Source: a virus
Length of the DNA stretch: 56,731 bases
Reading direction: 5' to 3' (one strand)
IMG/VR virus record: IMGVR_UViG_3300023083_000005
Coordinates: 1 to 56,731 of that record
Below the pieces are notes generated by a model, which saw only the letters and a program-made list of their open reading frames with translations, did not search any database and was not told the DNA's origin. A program made the translations under genes and the position numbers. Shown piece after piece: positions 169 to 44,781 of this stretch (position 1 is its first letter; each line of letters starts with the position of its first letter).

Positions 169-180
169 GATAGAGTAGCT
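169..180 (+). promoter_or_regulatory. Candidate -10 element TAGAGT (171..176) inside 12-mer GATAGAGTAGCT; the same 12-mer is on the minus strand at 44604..44615
   Basis: TAnnnT hexamer typical of actinobacterial -10 boxes. It lies upstream of the first rightward gene. The 12-nt identity with a second intergenic site was read directly. Confidence 0.35.
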
Positions 181-2978: not shown

Positions 2979-3494
2979 ATGGAGACAGACGTTGTACTAT
3001 CGCGCTCAGCACTTGACGAGCGCCTACTTGCCAATGCGCGCAAGTCACTGAGGGAAATCTCGGAGATTACCGGCCTCGGGGTCGAAGAGCTTGCCGAGCG
3101 CTACTCGATCCTGTTCGAAGAGCGCGGCTGGCTGACTGAACGGCAGGAAGAGCGCCTACTGCTCATCGAGCTAGGCGACATGCTCACAGACGGCAAGGCA
3201 CGGCTCAAAGAGGCCTCTCTAGAGGACTACGCCTCTATCTACCGGGCTATCCTCGCCAACATGACCCTCATGGCCAACCGCATGGATATGCGCCGTAAGC
3301 TGGTCGATGAGGATATCAACCGCATCACGCACGCCAATGCGCGGCAGTTCGGTGCAGCCTACGACACGGCAGTGAACCATATAGTTGCTTCTCTGCGTGC
3401 GGCCCACCCTGAGATTACCGACGAAGAGGTCGAGCAGTACTCCGTGGAGGGCTTGACGAAGGCCAAGCGCCAGCTTGCAAAGGTGACGCTGTAA
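2979..3494 (+). CDS. terS: terminase small subunit (putative)
   Basis: 171 aa immediately upstream of and overlapping terL; N-terminal HTH-like segment LREISEITGLGVEELAERY; call is mainly positional. Confidence 0.6.
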   Translation: METDVVLSRSALDERLLANARKSLREISEITGLGVEELAERYSILFEERGWLTERQEERLLLIELGDMLTDGKARLKEASLEDYASIYRAILANMTLMANRMDMRRKLVDEDINRITHANARQFGAAYDTAVNHIVASLRAAHPEITDEEVEQYSVEGLTKAKRQLAKVTL

Positions 3495-5140
3495 TGGCCT
3501 ACATGCAGAACATCATTGACGAAGCCCTCGCTGAGGTGGCCGTCAAAAGCCAGAAGCGCATCTACCAGCACGATTTCAACGCGTGGAGCGCTGACGTGCT
3601 GGGCCGACGCTACTACGAAAAGCTGCGCGAAATCTCGGACGTGGCGCTGTTCGGGGACAAGACCCGTACGGCAGTGAAGAGCGCCAACGGTTGCGGCAAG
3701 TCCCTGTGGCTGGCCGATCTTGTCACGTGGTGGTCAACGGCGTTCCCACCCGAGGACTCGCTGGCGATTATCACCGCGCCTACCCTGCATCAGATTCAAA
3801 ACGTCATGTTCACGTACCTCAAGAACAACTATGGGTACGTGGCACAGGAGGCGAAGAGCGACAACGTTCCATTCGCGTTCAACGGCACGTGGATCAACGA
3901 ATCGCTGGAGTGGAAGTACGCCAAGCCGAACGGTGCCGGTAACGAGAACATCGTCTTTGGCAAGCGCCCCTCTGACCAAGATATCGTATCAACCTTCCAA
4001 GGTACCCGCAAGGCCCGCACGCTGATCGCCATTGACGAGGGCGGCGGTGTCCCCGGTGAACTGTTCACGGCTGCTGAGGCGGTCGGTACCGGTGGTGAGA
4101 CTGTAATCGTGACCATCGGTAACCCTGACAAGCGTGGTACCGAGTTCCACAAGAAATTCAGCGACCCGAAAGAGTCTGCCGAGTGGAACACCTTCACGAT
4201 CAGCGCGTACGACCTGCCCACCATGACGGGCGAGATTGTATACCCGGGCGAGCCTGAGAAGCAAGAGAAGATGCTCAAAAAGGGTCTGACGACCCGTGAG
4301 TGGATCGAGCATAAAGAGCGCGTCTGGAAGGTCGGAGACAAGTGGGACGCTCGCGGTCTTGCCAAGGTTCTGGGTGAGTTCCCCGGGGAAACCGACAACA
4401 CGTTCTTTCCGCAGTCGGCTATCGACAAAGCGGGTGAACTTGATATCGACCCCGCTGGCGCGCGCATCATCATCGGTGCTGACGTTGCCGCTGCTGGTAG
4501 TGACGAGTCCGTGGTGTACGTCAACCGTGGCGGGCACGTGCGCCTGTTCGACAAGGGCATCCACTACAGCGACGGTGGCGAGGATCGCATCACCACGGGT
4601 GTCTGGAGCAAGGAAGACGAGGTATCGTCTGCCCGCAGACTGCACGCTATCGCCACTCACCTCGGTGCGCACGAGCTACGTGTTGACGCGGCGGGCCTCG
4701 GTGGTGCTATCTTCAAGATGCTCGAACGACTTGACGAGTTCAGCGACAAGTGCTATGAGCTATTTGCAATCATCGGATCGAACACGGCCAGCGACCGCGA
4801 CCAGTGGGCGAATAAGCGAGCCGAGAACCACGACAGCCTCAGACGGCAGATGATCGACGGGCTTATTGACCTCGACCCGTCAGACGATGTGCTGCGGAAC
4901 GAACTGCTGGTGGCGACCTATGCGCTGAACAACCGTGGCGCTGTGCAGATCACGCCCAAGCGAGAAATGGTGTCCCAGTTCGGCGGATCGCCTGACCGCA
5001 TGGATGCGCTGATCTACGCTACCACCGAGATTAGGGAAGCCAACGGCGGGGTTGCGGTCGGTGACGTGGTGATGTACGACTACGATCAGGCGCAGCAGGG
5101 CCATTTCTTCTATGACGATTTGGCCTCTGTGGGCTGGTAG
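3494..5140 (+). CDS. terL: terminase large subunit
   Basis: 548 aa; Walker A-like KSANGCGKS, Walker B-like LIAIDEGGG, RNaseH-like nuclease segment IIGADVAAAGSDESVVYV; position before portal. Confidence 0.9.
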   Translation: MAYMQNIIDEALAEVAVKSQKRIYQHDFNAWSADVLGRRYYEKLREISDVALFGDKTRTAVKSANGCGKSLWLADLVTWWSTAFPPEDSLAIITAPTLHQIQNVMFTYLKNNYGYVAQEAKSDNVPFAFNGTWINESLEWKYAKPNGAGNENIVFGKRPSDQDIVSTFQGTRKARTLIAIDEGGGVPGELFTAAEAVGTGGETVIVTIGNPDKRGTEFHKKFSDPKESAEWNTFTISAYDLPTMTGEIVYPGEPEKQEKMLKKGLTTREWIEHKERVWKVGDKWDARGLAKVLGEFPGETDNTFFPQSAIDKAGELDIDPAGARIIIGADVAAAGSDESVVYVNRGGHVRLFDKGIHYSDGGEDRITTGVWSKEDEVSSARRLHAIATHLGAHELRVDAAGLGGAIFKMLERLDEFSDKCYELFAIIGSNTASDRDQWANKRAENHDSLRRQMIDGLIDLDPSDDVLRNELLVATYALNNRGAVQITPKREMVSQFGGSPDRMDALIYATTEIREANGGVAVGDVVMYDYDQAQQGHFFYDDLASVGW

Positions 5141-32255: not shown

Positions 32256-32326
32256 GTGGACTGGCGGGAATCGAACCCACGTCCCTGCCCGACTTAGGGC
32301 CGCTCTTCCGATTGAGCTACAGTCCG
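32256..32326 (-). pseudogene. tRNA-like element / degenerate tRNA (no canonical anticodon arm)
   Basis: Acceptor (6 bp + C1:A72 mismatch), D arm GCTC-AATCGGAA-GAGC and T arm GTGGG-TTCGATT-CCCGC fold normally. The 21-nt central segment GGCCCTAAGTCGGGCAGGGAC gives only 4-bp stems with 6- or 9-nt loops. Confidence 0.55.
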
Positions 32327-32804: not shown

Positions 32805-32855
32805 AATATATCCTCCATACTGTTTGGACTACCTACTCTAGCAGATAGTTCGTGC

Positions 32856-41227: not shown

Positions 41228-42628
41228 TCAAGCCGAGACTTTTTGGAGGATGCTCAGGCCCGAGCGAACGAATGCGAATCCACCCAGTACGTCCTTATCG
41301 AAATCTTCGCTCATTTCGGGAGCCTTGAGCCAGCTTGACAGCGAACCGTCAGCCAGAACCTCGCCCACGTCACGGAAGTGGTTGACCCACGTCGCCTCGC
41401 CGTCATCCACCAGACCCGCGCCGGTGTTGCTCATTTCGCCCCACCAGTGAAGCATAGCGGCCAGCCCCTGAGGTGTCGTCTGTCCCTGATAGTCACCATC
41501 GTGGTCGAGGACATAAAACCGGTCGTCAAACGAACCACCCATGACCATAGAAGCGGAATCCTCGTCCACGGTTGACCCGGGAACGTCAGTGCGCCAGTTG
41601 TTGTTCTCATCGAACCAACCGTCAGGATCGTCACCGTATCCGTCGTCACCGGTCATCCACGCCTCGGCCCATGCGCGCTCAGCATCGGTGCGCGGGCTTG
41701 CCCATCCACCAGACGCGGGGACTGTACCCTCAGCGGGCACCGTAGCGGGCAGGGCGGGCTGTTCGGGCGTGAAGCCAGTTGTGGTGCTTGCGGCTGGCAG
41801 AGCCTTCTGAGTAGGCGTGTGGCTCGTCGCAGAAGCCTTGACTGCCGTCGTGCTGGTCGCGTTTCCGTGACCGCCCGACGTGGCGTTGCGCCATGTGGGG
41901 TTGTACCGACGCGCAGCACGATCCCAGTCTAGGTCTTCGTGCTGGAATGCCTTGGCATTGGTAATGGTCAGGTAGTCGCCGTCTTGCAGGTCAGCGAACG
42001 GCTTGGGCCATGTACCGAACCAGCGGATGCCGACACGCTTGAGTGCCTTGGCGAGAATGCTGTCGGTCGATGCGAAGACGAAAGACCCATCCTCAAGGCG
42101 TGCGATAGACACGGGGGAGTGGTTCAGGCGCGACAGGTGAATGGTGTTACCCGTCTGGGTGTCGAACCATGCGAGGGCAGCGTCACCACCGATCAGCGAG
42201 AATCCTTCGGTGCCGTACTCGGACAGCATTTCAGCCGCAACCGACGAGTCAACCTCGGGCAGTTGACTGCCATTTGTCAGGATTGCCCGCACGCTGTCAT
42301 GATTGAACAGAACGCCGTTGTGTACCAGCGTGATTCGCTTGTCGATGCTCGGCAGCGGGTGGTTGTTGTCGTTCACCTCAACCGGGCCGTGGGTTGCGAA
42401 ACGGGTGTGCATGATCACGCTGTCAGCCTTGCGGGGCAGCCCCTTTAGCTCAAGCTGTGAGCCGGGTACAGCCGCCTTGAACATGCCGGTTGCGCCGTTT
42501 CGGGTGGCGTAGGCGTATCCGCTGGCATGGGTGCCCCGAACCTCGCCCTCACTCAGCAGTGCATTGGCCAGTTCGCGTGCGTTGATCTTGGAGCCTTCTG
42601 CAAGGCTGAATCCGGTGATTGAACAGAT
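41228..42628 (-). CDS. class-II (Ntn) glutamine amidotransferase domain protein with about 220-aa C-terminal extension; apparent ATC start
   Basis: Nucleophile context (I)CSITGF, then MHTRFATHG...NNHP, HNGVLFN, EVDSSV. The ORF-track ATG (42484) would delete the catalytic Cys. AAGGAG lies 6 nt upstream of ATC-TGT. Confidence 0.7.
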   Translation of the reverse strand: MCSITGFSLAEGSKINARELANALLSEGEVRGTHASGYAYATRNGATGMFKAAVPGSQLELKGLPRKADSVIMHTRFATHGPVEVNDNNHPLPSIDKRITLVHNGVLFNHDSVRAILTNGSQLPEVDSSVAAEMLSEYGTEGFSLIGGDAALAWFDTQTGNTIHLSRLNHSPVSIARLEDGSFVFASTDSILAKALKRVGIRWFGTWPKPFADLQDGDYLTITNAKAFQHEDLDWDRAARRYNPTWRNATSGGHGNATSTTAVKASATSHTPTQKALPAASTTTGFTPEQPALPATVPAEGTVPASGGWASPRTDAERAWAEAWMTGDDGYGDDPDGWFDENNNWRTDVPGSTVDEDSASMVMGGSFDDRFYVLDHDGDYQGQTTPQGLAAMLHWWGEMSNTGAGLVDDGEATWVNHFRDVGEVLADGSLSSWLKAPEMSEDFDKDVLGGFAFVRSGLSILQKVSA

Positions 42629-42767
42629 GATATTCTCCTTTGTTAGTTCTGAAAGTGTTAGTGGGGCGCAAGGTCGTATTCCCTTGCGCCCCCGGTGGGT
42701 GCGAGTCTGACTCGCAATTAGCTAGTCCATTGCTCCACTAGAACCACCTCTTGCTGCGAGCTTACCC

Positions 42768-44243
42768 CTAGACTTCGCCCCCGGCAAGTACCAGTTCGGA
42801 CATACGGGCCGAGAAGTTGATCGGCTCGTTCTTCGTGAACATGGCCTCAATGTCCTCGTCAGTGATCGTTGACATGGAATCGTCAACGGTTTCCTTGCCG
42901 TACTTTACGAACAGCTTGTGCAGGTCTTCGAACGAGTTGACCCGGTTCCACTCGGCTTGCTTGACGTTGGCGCGGGCAACGTTCACCAATTCGCGGCAGA
43001 TGTATGCCCACCGGATCAGGTATTCGTAGTCGTAGACCGGGCCCATTGCGCGGAACTCGACGGTACCGTGACGGTTCAGGGCGTTCAGGTTCAGCGAGAG
43101 GTAACGGTCACCGCGCGAAACGTCGTGCTTGGTGGCTGCCGTCTTGCTGGAACGCAGGGTGTCACGAACCGCACCGAGCGAGCGAGGCATGCAGTAGGTG
43201 CGAACCTCGCGCTGGTAGCTCGACGCCAGAAGCGGCTCAATGGCACTGTAGCCGTACGTGAGCGAGCCAAGCTGGCGCGGGGTGAGGTCGTCCACGTCTA
43301 CGTGCACGTGAATGCCGCTCGTGTCGTTCTGCGGCTGCGTGGACAGGTGGGCCGTCAGGCTTTCGAGTCCCTTGGAGTGGAACGAGTGAAGAATGGGCGA
43401 AACGAATTCGCGGCAGTCTGCACTGCGGTCGCCGTCTTCGTACGCACTGCGCAGCGAGCCGTCAGCACGGGAGTCCCAGCCAGCGGGCTTGACCGCGCCA
43501 CGTGCGCCACCGGTTTCTACCTCAATGCCCCAGTTGCGGGAGGAACGGAGGCCGTGAGGCGCAATGGCGAACTTCTCCACGATGCGCTCAACGTTCTCGC
43601 TCTTTTTGTCCATGAGCTTCGTGAAGAATCCGTTGAAGTCGCCGGTACCCGAACGGACAGCCTTGCGCTTCTCGGCTTCCCGTGCCGCGTCAGCGGTCTT
43701 GGAGGCGCGGCGCATGGCTTCGAGCAGTTCTTTCTTGTAAGTGTCTTGCATGGCAATCAGGTAGTACAGCGCGTCAGCCAGCCCAGAGGCCCGCACGCGC
43801 CCGTCAGAGCGCACTGGAACGGTGATCGCGTGGCGCTCCATCACGGAGGTGTGAATGGCTCCCTTGGCAGTCGACGGAACAAGGTGGGCACCCTGTTTGA
43901 TGTAGACGATCCACGGGATGATGCCGATGTTCAGTTCGGCCAGCGCTTCCTTGGGTGACATGTAGTTGTCAACCAGTTCGCTCATGTAGACGCCACCGCG
44001 ACCCAGTTCGAGGCTGAAAGTGCCGTCGTCGGCCTTGTTCACCTTGACCTCGTTGGCGAAGTTGTAGCGGTCGTAGAAGTTCATGGTGGCGATAAACGCC
44101 CGGTACGCGCGTTCGATCTTGCGGGCATCCTTGCCAAGCTGAATGCTGGTCTTGCTGTTGAGCAGCGCCTTGGTAATGCCCCCCTCGTATGCGACACGGG
44201 CGTGCGCTTCGACCAGATTCTGAATGTTGCTCTCGTGACTCAC
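42768..44243 (-). CDS. amidoligase (glutamine-synthetase-like, Amidoligase_2 family)
   Basis: WGIEVETGGARG, ADGSL, EFVSPIL, SGIHVHVD, GTVEFRAM; GTG 44243 preceded by AAGGAGG (the track N-terminal extension was rejected). Confidence 0.75.
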   Translation of the reverse strand: MSHESNIQNLVEAHARVAYEGGITKALLNSKTSIQLGKDARKIERAYRAFIATMNFYDRYNFANEVKVNKADDGTFSLELGRGGVYMSELVDNYMSPKEALAELNIGIIPWIVYIKQGAHLVPSTAKGAIHTSVMERHAITVPVRSDGRVRASGLADALYYLIAMQDTYKKELLEAMRRASKTADAAREAEKRKAVRSGTGDFNGFFTKLMDKKSENVERIVEKFAIAPHGLRSSRNWGIEVETGGARGAVKPAGWDSRADGSLRSAYEDGDRSADCREFVSPILHSFHSKGLESLTAHLSTQPQNDTSGIHVHVDVDDLTPRQLGSLTYGYSAIEPLLASSYQREVRTYCMPRSLGAVRDTLRSSKTAATKHDVSRGDRYLSLNLNALNRHGTVEFRAMGPVYDYEYLIRWAYICRELVNVARANVKQAEWNRVNSFEDLHKLFVKYGKETVDDSMSTITDEDIEAMFTKNEPINFSARMSELVLAGGEV

Positions 44244-44391
44244 TGATACCTCCTTGGTAGATGATGTTGATTGGCTCTGGTTAGAGCTTAGTGCAGTTAT
44301 GCCCCACTGCGCAAGAGAATCTTGCAAATCAAGGGAAGAAATTCCGAGCCGGACTGCGGTTGACGCAACCCTCTCGGGAGTCCAAGGTTCT

Positions 44392-44502
44392 CTAGGCATT
44401 GCCGAACCCGATGTAAGCGCAGATGATCGGCACACACAGGGTGAAGATAGCGGCAAGAATGCCGTCTACACTGGACAGTTCCTTTTTGGCGCGCTCAAGC
44501 AC
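44392..44502 (-). CDS. small membrane peptide (36 aa)
   Basis: AGGAGG + 5 nt + GTG; VLERAKKELSSVDGILAAIFTLCVPIICAYIGFGNA. Confidence 0.45.
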   Translation of the reverse strand: MLERAKKELSSVDGILAAIFTLCVPIICAYIGFGNA

Positions 44503-44603
44503 AGTGACCTCCTAATGTCAAAAGAATGGGTGCTGGCATCCCTGAAAGTGATCGCAACTGCCGAACGTACACAGATGTATCAGGGCGGTTTTGCAGAATC
44601 GAG

Positions 44604-44615
44604 AGCTACTCTATC
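44604..44615 (-). promoter_or_regulatory. GATAGAGTAGCT box (TAGAGT -10-like) upstream of the amidoligase operon
   Basis: Reverse complement of agctactctatc; identical to the 12-mer at 169..180. Confidence 0.35.
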
Positions 44616-44721
44616 TGTCGAGGAATAGGCCAGACTGCTATTACTACTGTGGATCATGAGCGAATTGAACGCTCGTCCCGGCTGGTGCCGTGTCTTTCCA
44701 ATTAGACCAATGACCCGGTGT

Positions 44722-44781
44722 GAAACCCCTGAGTTATGGACGCTCAGGGGCGGGGAGGGCGGGGCTGATTAGACCCCGCCC
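44722..44781 (-). terminator. Tandem hairpin terminators after 44788..45138
   Basis: GGGCGGGG/CCCCGCCC (44757..44781) and CCCCTGAG/CTCAGGGG (44726..44750), then TTT on the minus strand. Confidence 0.6.

Follow-up and report, generated by a model that had tools for sequence, protein, structure and literature searches.

The 56,731-nt viral sequence IMGVR_UViG_3300023083_000005 (IMG/VR), hereafter called the window, carries on its minus strand adjacent genes for an amidoligase and a class-II, N-terminal nucleophile (Ntn) glutamine amidotransferase. The amidoligase gene (42768..44243, minus strand; 491 aa; Pfam Amidoligase_2) begins with a GTG codon behind an AAGGAGG Shine-Dalgarno sequence. It is followed by a structured spacer of 139 nt (42629..42767, minus strand), which contains an 11-bp GC hairpin (42663..42692) and a second Shine-Dalgarno sequence, AAGGAG (42635..42640), and then by the amidotransferase gene (41228..42628, minus strand; GATase_6/GATase_7), whose 466 codons include an ATC start at 42626..42628. 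Upstream of the pair lie a gene for a 36-aa membrane peptide, a repeated 12-nt box and a tRNA-like cloverleaf. A first-pass annotation made from the sequence alone had proposed the order peptide, amidoligase, spacer and amidotransferase, and all four elements were found in that order and place. The pair is a member of a known, uncharacterized class of phage gene pair, and we tentatively read its products as a split, glutamine-dependent, ATP-driven amidating enzyme with an accessory role in host takeover or metabolism.

Profile searches placed both proteins in the families to which they had been assigned by motif, each above its Pfam cutoff and with PHROGs in agreement; the motifs themselves are all present (IEVETGG, EFVSPIL, GIHVHVD and TVEFR in the amidoligase, CSITGF, HTRFATHG and HNGVLFN in the amidotransferase). 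The amidotransferase matched GATase_6 (E = 4e-16; 59.7 bits, cutoff 27) and GATase_7 (E = 7e-10; 39.4 bits, cutoff 25). When its family profile was searched against the PDB, GlmS was found at E = 1.9e-16, the GlmS glutaminase domains being the nearest solved relatives, while NCBIfam returned just far-subthreshold matches to GlmS, AsnB and PurF. Residues C1, R30, R75, T78, N103, G104 and D126 align with C1, R26, R73, T76, N98, G99 and D123 of GlmS; across 21 homologues the last six do not vary, and every sequence called from its true start has C1. In GlmS and PurF the equivalent residues provide the nucleophile and the oxyanion hole and bind glutamine by its free alpha-carboxylate and alpha-amino groups. 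Because these GlmS-type residues are kept, the phage enzyme should bind free glutamine or a gamma-glutamyl compound rather than a peptide-bound residue. Cys1 and the glutamine-site residues are thus shared with the N-terminal glutaminase domain of GlmS (1xff), with PurF and with AsnB, but these enzymes carry a fused synthase domain (SIS, PRTase or PP-loop), whereas the window enzyme has an unassigned domain of 100 aa instead.

The family, motifs and stop codon of the amidotransferase agree with the first-pass annotation; its length of 466 aa, however, is attained only from an ATC start, which that annotation had missed. The ATC at 42628 directly precedes the Cys codon (ATC-TGT), with AAGGAG 6 nt upstream, and the frame has no ATG, GTG or TTG from the preceding stop codon to the Cys codon; a mechanical open reading frame (ORF) call starts at an internal ATG and yields 418 aa. 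Orthologues have ATG-TGT or TTG-TGC at the same position. Among 39 related loci with a placeable start, 33 have ATG directly before the Cys codon, 5 have ATC and 1 has TTG. Four of the five ATC cases (the window, L016 at 5809, L028 at 1046 and L031 at 3474) have no canonical in-frame start upstream; in the fifth (L015, ATC at 4906) an ATG lies eight codons upstream, which implies an 8-residue propeptide. The string AAGGAGAATATC-ATC-TG is common to the window and the distantly related L016. Since ATC recurs in other loci, in one of them within this shared string, we regard it not as a sequencing error but as a recurrent weak AUC start used across lineages. Given this noncanonical start, Cys as the first residue after the initiator holds for the amidotransferase.

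The spacer between the two genes was said to be structured, and it folds with a minimum free energy (MFE) of −48.6 kcal/mol (z = −3.36; 0 of 200 shuffled sequences were as stable). Relatives carry hairpins of different sequence at the same intergenic place: over 28 spacers the median z was −2.67, with z below −2 in 15 and an uninterrupted stem of at least 10 bp in 13. Together, the intergenic stem-loop and the AUC start suggest that less glutaminase than ligase is made.

For the amidoligase, Amidoligase_2 (PF12224) gave 35.4 bits against a cutoff of 22, over aa 332 to 490 of the 562-aa ORF, and PHROG amidoligase families matched down to E = 1e-21. Its family profile found no match among PDB sequences, NCBIfam returned nothing for it, and PADLOC gave no match for either protein. 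The AlphaFold model (mean pLDDT of 84.6) comprises an N-terminal domain (about aa 1 to 190), a flexible linker, a catalytic domain (about aa 225 to 445) with the fold of glutamine synthetase (GS) and GCS2, and a flexible C-terminal tail. Its top Foldseek matches were YbdK (1r8g and 1tt4; probability 0.98 to 0.99), followed by many glutamine synthetases, at low TM-scores (0.2 to 0.27) and 12 to 14% identity. In the homologue alignment, E241/E243, E279, H312/H314, R380 and E396/R398 are invariant, giving the motifs E-x-E, H-x-H and E-x-R. The modeled fold and the Glu/His/Arg kind of motif are those of YbdK/GCS2 and GS, from which the phage protein differs by its extra N-terminal domain and by TM-scores of only 0.2 to 0.27. 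As modeled, the ligase has a GS/GCS2 fold, and by family it would be an ATP-dependent, amide-forming ligase. None of the listed Foldseek matches is attributable to the well-modeled N-terminal domain of about 190 aa. In most homologous ligases (P0003 to P0015 and others), a Cys-rich insertion that may be a zinc ribbon separates the GDGSLRS motif from EFVSP (alignment columns ~700 to 770); this insertion is absent from the ligases of the window and of its closest relative, L001.

The C-terminal part of the amidotransferase had been described as having no recognizable motif. It holds a conserved domain, and no match to that domain was found in Pfam, the PDB or BFVD. The glutaminase domain (about aa 1 to 235) is followed by a disordered, Thr/Pro-rich and acidic Trp-rich linker and by a conserved domain formed by the last ~100 aa (41231..41533, minus strand), which AlphaFold models with a pLDDT of ~90 to 95. 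Fold searches with this domain reached E = 1.6 in the PDB (GYF domains) and E = 0.52 in BFVD at best, which we take as noise. An exhaustive phmmer search returned 43 matches, mostly of full amidotransferase length (~350 to 600 aa). Ten shorter or atypical matches were scanned against Pfam; one of 603 aa has a GATase domain and the short ones gave no significant match, although one of these (P0193) adjoins a piece that matches the glutaminase profile and looks like a split gene. A match of 2789 aa looks spurious. The domain is family specific, without an assigned relative, and stands in place of the canonical synthase domain; this stretch of ~100 aa is all that the protein has where a fused acceptor domain would be expected. 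Amidotransferases that lack it (L017 to L019 and related loci) end in an acidic tip (TDDTF, TEDIF or YSDVF) reminiscent of the C-terminal tails of single-stranded-DNA-binding proteins (SSB).

The last ~10 residues of the ligase are flexible and end in GGEV (42771..42782, minus strand). By hand count, the tail ends in E-V or E-I in 11 of the 18 loci with the C-terminal domain in the partner protein versus ~3 of the 15 without it, among loci that are not phylogenetically independent; ligase tail and amidotransferase domain are therefore no more than a weak lead as a possible docking pair.

Each protein also has a conserved Gly-rich motif outside its catalytic domain. In the ligase, K-x-V-R-S-G-x-G-x-F is conserved (aa 194 to 203) in the only low-confidence linker of the model (aa 191 to 200), with V-R-S-G-T-G-D-F encoded at 43635..43655 (minus strand); in the amidotransferase, W-R-x-A-T-S-G-G-H-G (41864..41881, minus strand) follows the glutaminase domain, and its TSGxG form is kept in distant loci and in Arthrobacter phage proteins. 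RSGTGDF and TSGGHG could be recognition or acceptor sites if the ligase tagged a protein of the host or phage with an amino acid or peptide, in the manner of Pup ligase or RimK, and the Ntn enzyme processed or removed the tag. Such tagging is reportedly the original idea of comparative genomics for modules of this kind, and it would suit both a ligase from a superfamily of peptide and isopeptide ligases and the position of the pair in the early region of the genome. However, R75 and D126 of the Ntn enzyme would bind free alpha-carboxylate and alpha-amino groups, which a peptide-bound residue does not offer, and there is no conserved small tag gene beside the pair, the sole small neighbor being the lineage-specific membrane peptide. 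We consider protein tagging improbable.

The two genes are strictly linked. Ligase homologues are common on metagenomic contigs of 50 to 65 kb. Related loci were collected by exact-protein look-ups and from IMG/VR and JGI metagenomes and were scored with hidden Markov models, one for the ligase core and two for the amidotransferase (glutaminase domain and C-terminal domain). In every one of the 34 distinct loci with at least 1.5 kb of sequence downstream, an amidotransferase gene follows the ligase gene on the same strand. No other enzyme gene recurs beside the pair in seven gene-called neighborhoods; a reaction carried out by the two proteins must therefore be self-complete. Other genes lie between ligase and amidotransferase in L007, L015, L016, L030 and L037, where the spacers are 0.5 to 1.4 kb long; the pair therefore tolerates uncoupling.

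Cultured phages carry the same combination. Arthrobacter phages Shrooms (gp97-gp98; Laroyevirus) and Ottawa (gp65-gp66) share with the window both families, the gene order, an intergenic hairpin and an actinobacterial host; their genes are annotated as "amidoligase" or "carboxylate amine ligase" and "glutamine amidotransferase domain protein." Across the glutaminase domain and as far as the W..TSGxG motif, their amidotransferase is 31% identical to that of the window; their ligase is only ~25% identical over 154 aa. These proteins are minimal (338 aa and 313 aa), however: unlike those of the window, the ligase lacks the ~190-aa N-terminal domain and the amidotransferase the ~100-aa C-terminal domain. 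Amidoligase_2 and a class-II amidotransferase are also found, within multi-ligase modules, among the early genes of phages of Pseudomonas and other Gram-negative bacteria (the LUZ24-like Bruynoghevirus, UFV-P2, tf and Paundecimvirus O4), as in the window. In UFV-P2, a COOH-NH2 ligase-domain protein and an ATP-grasp enzyme are added and an HNH gene splits the pair, while the larger cluster of Pseudomonas phage O4 includes an aminotransferase as well as a COOH.NH2 ligase and a RimK-like ATP-grasp enzyme. The module of the window consists of the two genes alone.

Comparative genomics has reportedly flagged phage pairs of an amidoligase and a class-II amidotransferase. Phage genome papers report the pair without a function (PMC3890496, PMC3517423), and it has been treated, on indirect evidence, as a set of auxiliary nitrogen-metabolism genes (PMC10945688). 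In the searchable literature we found no experimental characterization of it, in line with the first-pass statement that such pairs are known from phages and that their substrate is not established; a Klebsiella "amidoligase" paper concerns an ATP-grasp enzyme and is irrelevant here. Within this class, the window represents a distinct actinophage variant, marked by two unassigned domains, the recurrent AUC start and the conserved intergenic stem-loop.

The window, at ~56.7 kb, resembles a complete phage genome. Its left arm consists of plus-strand structural genes and its right arm of minus-strand early and replication genes, for which Pfam scans identified DUF3987 primase/helicase, SSB, ERF, WhiB and SNF2-type helicase products. 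The pair sits upstream of the SNF2 helicase, WhiB, ERF and SSB genes, that is, in the early region. No GenBank phage has DNA nearly identical to the window. Because the large terminase shares 60% identity with its counterpart in Clavibacter phage CN1A (genome of 56.8 kb), the host is probably an actinobacterium of the Microbacteriaceae kind. The pair is absent from the corresponding early region of CN1A, the closest cultured relative, and is therefore an accessory cassette.

The gene content of the window also bears on a possible role of the pair in the tailoring of a modified base of phage DNA. Amidoligase and amidotransferase Pfam matches have been reported in the 5-HMUDK and aGPT-Pplase clusters of viral contigs, a co-occurrence with thymidine hypermodification that would fit such a role (PMC8989533). 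However, Pfam scans of 30 further ORFs of the window, the small ones in part, revealed no 5-hydroxymethyldeoxyuridine kinase, aGPT-Pplase, dUMP hydroxymethylase, TET/JBP enzyme or DNA polymerase, nor are there such genes in the gene-called neighborhoods of six relatives. DNA hypermodification is thus very unlikely.

As a split amidating enzyme, the pair would work as follows. Cys1 of the amidotransferase, as the N-terminal nucleophile, would hydrolyze free L-glutamine to glutamate and ammonia. The GS/GCS2-fold ligase would use ATP to convert a substrate carboxylate to an acyl-phosphate, and attack of ammonia on this intermediate would yield the amide, as in glutamine synthetase chemistry; overall, glutamine, ATP and R-COOH would give glutamate, ADP, Pi and R-CONH2. 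The C-terminal domain, in lieu of a synthase domain, would dock the amidotransferase on the ligase, perhaps on the tail ending in Glu-Val or Glu-Ile, and the stem-loop and AUC start would hold the glutaminase well below the ligase. Within this scheme we infer the ammonia transfer, the physical docking and the carboxylate as substrate. The intact glutamine-site residues, the lack of a synthase domain of the amidotransferase's own, the complete linkage in the 34 loci and the GS/GCS2 fold of the ligase all speak for it, as do the self-sufficiency of the two genes, the weak docking lead from tail and domain, and the accessory nature and early-region position of the pair. Of the complete reactions open to two proteins, it is the most economical. 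MurT/GatD, two proteins that carry out the glutamine-dependent amidation of D-isoglutamate in peptidoglycan, offers an analogy rather than a family to which the pair belongs: there, a separate glutaminase likewise feeds ammonia to an ATP-dependent ligase (PMC3267633), but the folds (a Mur ligase and a class-I amidotransferase) are unrelated.

Several observations weigh against a split amidating enzyme. Among GS-fold enzymes, none is known to be supplied with ammonia by a partner glutamine amidotransferase. Translational coupling is the rule for obligate heteromeric amidotransferases, yet the phage genes are separated by a spacer of 50 to 320 nt, often with a strong hairpin, and in some loci (L007, L015/L016, L030 and L037) by inserted genes; the weak AUC start likewise argues against a 1:1 stoichiometry. 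Moreover, in Pseudomonas-type phages the pair is accompanied by further ligases, and elsewhere by a gamma-glutamylcyclotransferase, which better fits gamma-glutamyl peptide chemistry. In such a gamma-glutamyl shuttle, the ligase would link an amine, for instance a polyamine, a thiol-amine, a cell-wall amine or lysine, to the gamma-carboxyl group of glutamate, and the Ntn enzyme would be a hydrolase or transferase acting on the ligase product instead of an ammonia donor, comparable to EgtA/EgtC or GmaS/MgsA.

The closest ligase structures, YbdK (gamma-glutamyl:cysteine ligase family 2) and the glutamine synthetases, favor the shuttle, and the Ntn glutamine-site residues would suit any gamma-glutamyl compound equally. 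One of the phages with added ligases also has a gamma-glutamylcyclotransferase and a glutathione-synthase-like enzyme. In Pfam, Amidoligase_2 is reportedly described as a neighbor of a GAT-like thiol peptidase or else of an AIG2 cyclotransferase; each of these enzymes cleaves gamma-glutamyl amides. The loose coupling implied by the hairpin, the AUC start and the inserted genes would also be appropriate for sequential enzymes. Two such genes alone, however, would make and break the same product in a futile cycle unless a host enzyme intervened, and in the actinophage neighborhoods no enzyme that would provide an amine or act in tailoring is linked to the pair. The shuttle is the main rival but strikes us as rather unlikely, and the split amidating enzyme remains our preferred, if tentative, reading.

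The features upstream of the ligase gene are less widely conserved. The membrane peptide gene (44392..44502, minus strand) has a GTG start 5 nt after AGGAGG, and its product has one hydrophobic helix and would be single pass. Comparison with its orthologue in L001 gave proportions of synonymous and nonsynonymous differences of 0.74 (pS) and 0.17 (pN) and a ratio of nonsynonymous to synonymous substitutions (dN/dS) of 0.06, on the basis of which we take it to be a real, lineage-specific gene. The first-pass annotation had suggested the peptide as a substrate or targeting partner of the enzymes. We found it only in the window and L001, with no counterpart upstream of the pair in L003 to L007, and rejected it as a conserved partner or substrate; because the module is conserved without the peptide, it is unlikely to be the substrate.

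Between the peptide and ligase genes is a stretch of 148 nt (44244..44391, minus strand; fold z = −2.19) that is open in the ligase frame. The stop codon of the peptide gene overlaps an in-frame ATG at 44399 (ATGCCTAG), from which the ligase would gain 52 residues. Between the window and L001, whose ligases are 80% identical, dN/dS is ~1.05 over these 52 codons versus 0.21 over the ligase core. The stretch thus evolves as noncoding sequence; the 543-aa ligase was rejected and the GTG start with its strong Shine-Dalgarno sequence, and with it the length of 491 aa, is favored. The extension (44244..44399, minus strand) is nonetheless open in both genomes, without indels and with low dS, which together with a dN/dS near 1 suggests constraint at the nucleotide rather than the protein level. 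Many ligase homologues encode an in-frame Shine-Dalgarno sequence (as KE or EE codons) ahead of the equivalent internal start.

About 100 nt upstream of the peptide start lies the box GATAGAGTAGCT (44604..44615, minus strand), which contains TAGAGT as a candidate −10-like element and had been proposed as the promoter of the module. It has exactly two copies in the window, the other at 169..180 (plus strand), and their likeness is confined to the 12 nt; by calculation, chance alone should produce a repeated 12-mer in 57 kb. For the 8-nt core TAGAGTAG, three copies were counted versus 0.67 expected, and 4 of 100 shuffled sequences reached that number. All three copies are intergenic and point at downstream genes: one at 171..178 (plus strand) precedes the first left-arm gene, one at 32833..32840 (minus strand) lies ~28 nt before the SSB start, and one, at 44606 (minus strand), is within the box upstream of the peptide gene. 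The core may be a −10-like promoter element of this phage. TAGAGT is a reasonable actinobacterial −10 hexamer, but a sigma-70 consensus scan gave no promoter at the box, with no −35 and −10 pair at 16- to 18-nt spacing and just TAGAGT; actinobacterial promoters often lack a −35 element, so that its lack does not exclude function. The RNA around the box is unstructured (z = +1.44). In the alignment with L001, the box falls within a segment of ~115 nt that L001 lacks, and the 12-mer is absent from all 20 related loci compared. The proposal of a promoter belonging to the module thus found no support, and the box is plausibly a candidate −10-like element of this genome only.

Immediately upstream of the box, an MFE fold revealed a tRNA-like cloverleaf (44650..44716, minus strand; z = −4.55), whose membership in the module is uncertain. 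It lies downstream of two GC hairpins (44757..44781 and 44725..44751). Its acceptor stem is 7 bp long and carries G3:U70 and A73; a D arm and a T arm (GAGCG-TTCAATT-CGCTC) are also present. In the place of the anticodon arm there is a 4-bp stem capped by an ACCA tetraloop, without a 7-nt anticodon loop, and neither ARAGORN nor the Rfam tRNA model called a tRNA in this segment. By our own count it is ~94% identical to its counterpart in L001 (5793..5862, followed there by CCA), versus 75 to 79% for the amidoligase gene and its upstream extension. Similar elements lie upstream of the pair in L003 (5860..5936; "tRNA-???" in ARAGORN), L004 (~3321..3396) and L005 (4783..4851; Rfam tRNA, 34 bits) and between the two genes in L037 (4856..4923). 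The tRNA-like elements near the pair have abnormal anticodon arms, with a tetraloop cap in window/L001, L003 and L037. A search of IMG/VR with the exact pattern of the D arm gave chance matches only.

G3:U70 with A73 is the identity set of AlaRS. The element might accordingly be imagined as a nondecoding aminoacyl carrier for the ligase and glutaminase, in a GatCAB-like or otherwise tRNA-dependent amidation or transfer system, a notion that we regard as extremely improbable. Found in five lineages only (window/L001, L003, L004, L005 and L037), it was rejected as a universal part of the module; a feature of the lineage, for example a processing signal or module boundary, is more probable than a part of the enzyme system. 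Downstream of the elements in L004 (3400..3560) and L005 (4855..4960), a common leader, TGCAGAAGTCCCAGT ... CTGGGCAAGT, surrounds a variable hairpin; Rfam gave no match to it. A second odd tRNA is encoded in the window between the primase and SSB genes (32256..32326, minus strand; Rfam tRNA, 40 bits), for which ARAGORN gives a 2-nt "anticodon," i.e., a shortened anticodon loop.

Pairs of this kind occur in many phages, including those of Pseudomonas, enterobacteria, Vibrio and Arthrobacter as well as uncultured actinophages. If the module merely helps nitrogen metabolism, the finding is an ordinary one. The actinophage form is minimal, consisting of two genes with no other linked enzyme, and therefore offers the cleanest system in which to find the reaction and the substrate. 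The recurrent AUC codon before the Ntn cysteine and the conserved stem-loop suggest that the glutaminase is deliberately kept low, which would make its synthesis a point of regulation. Were the two proteins indeed a split, glutamine-dependent amidating enzyme, the ligase would provide the first known example of a GS-fold synthase that is supplied by a glutamine amidotransferase.

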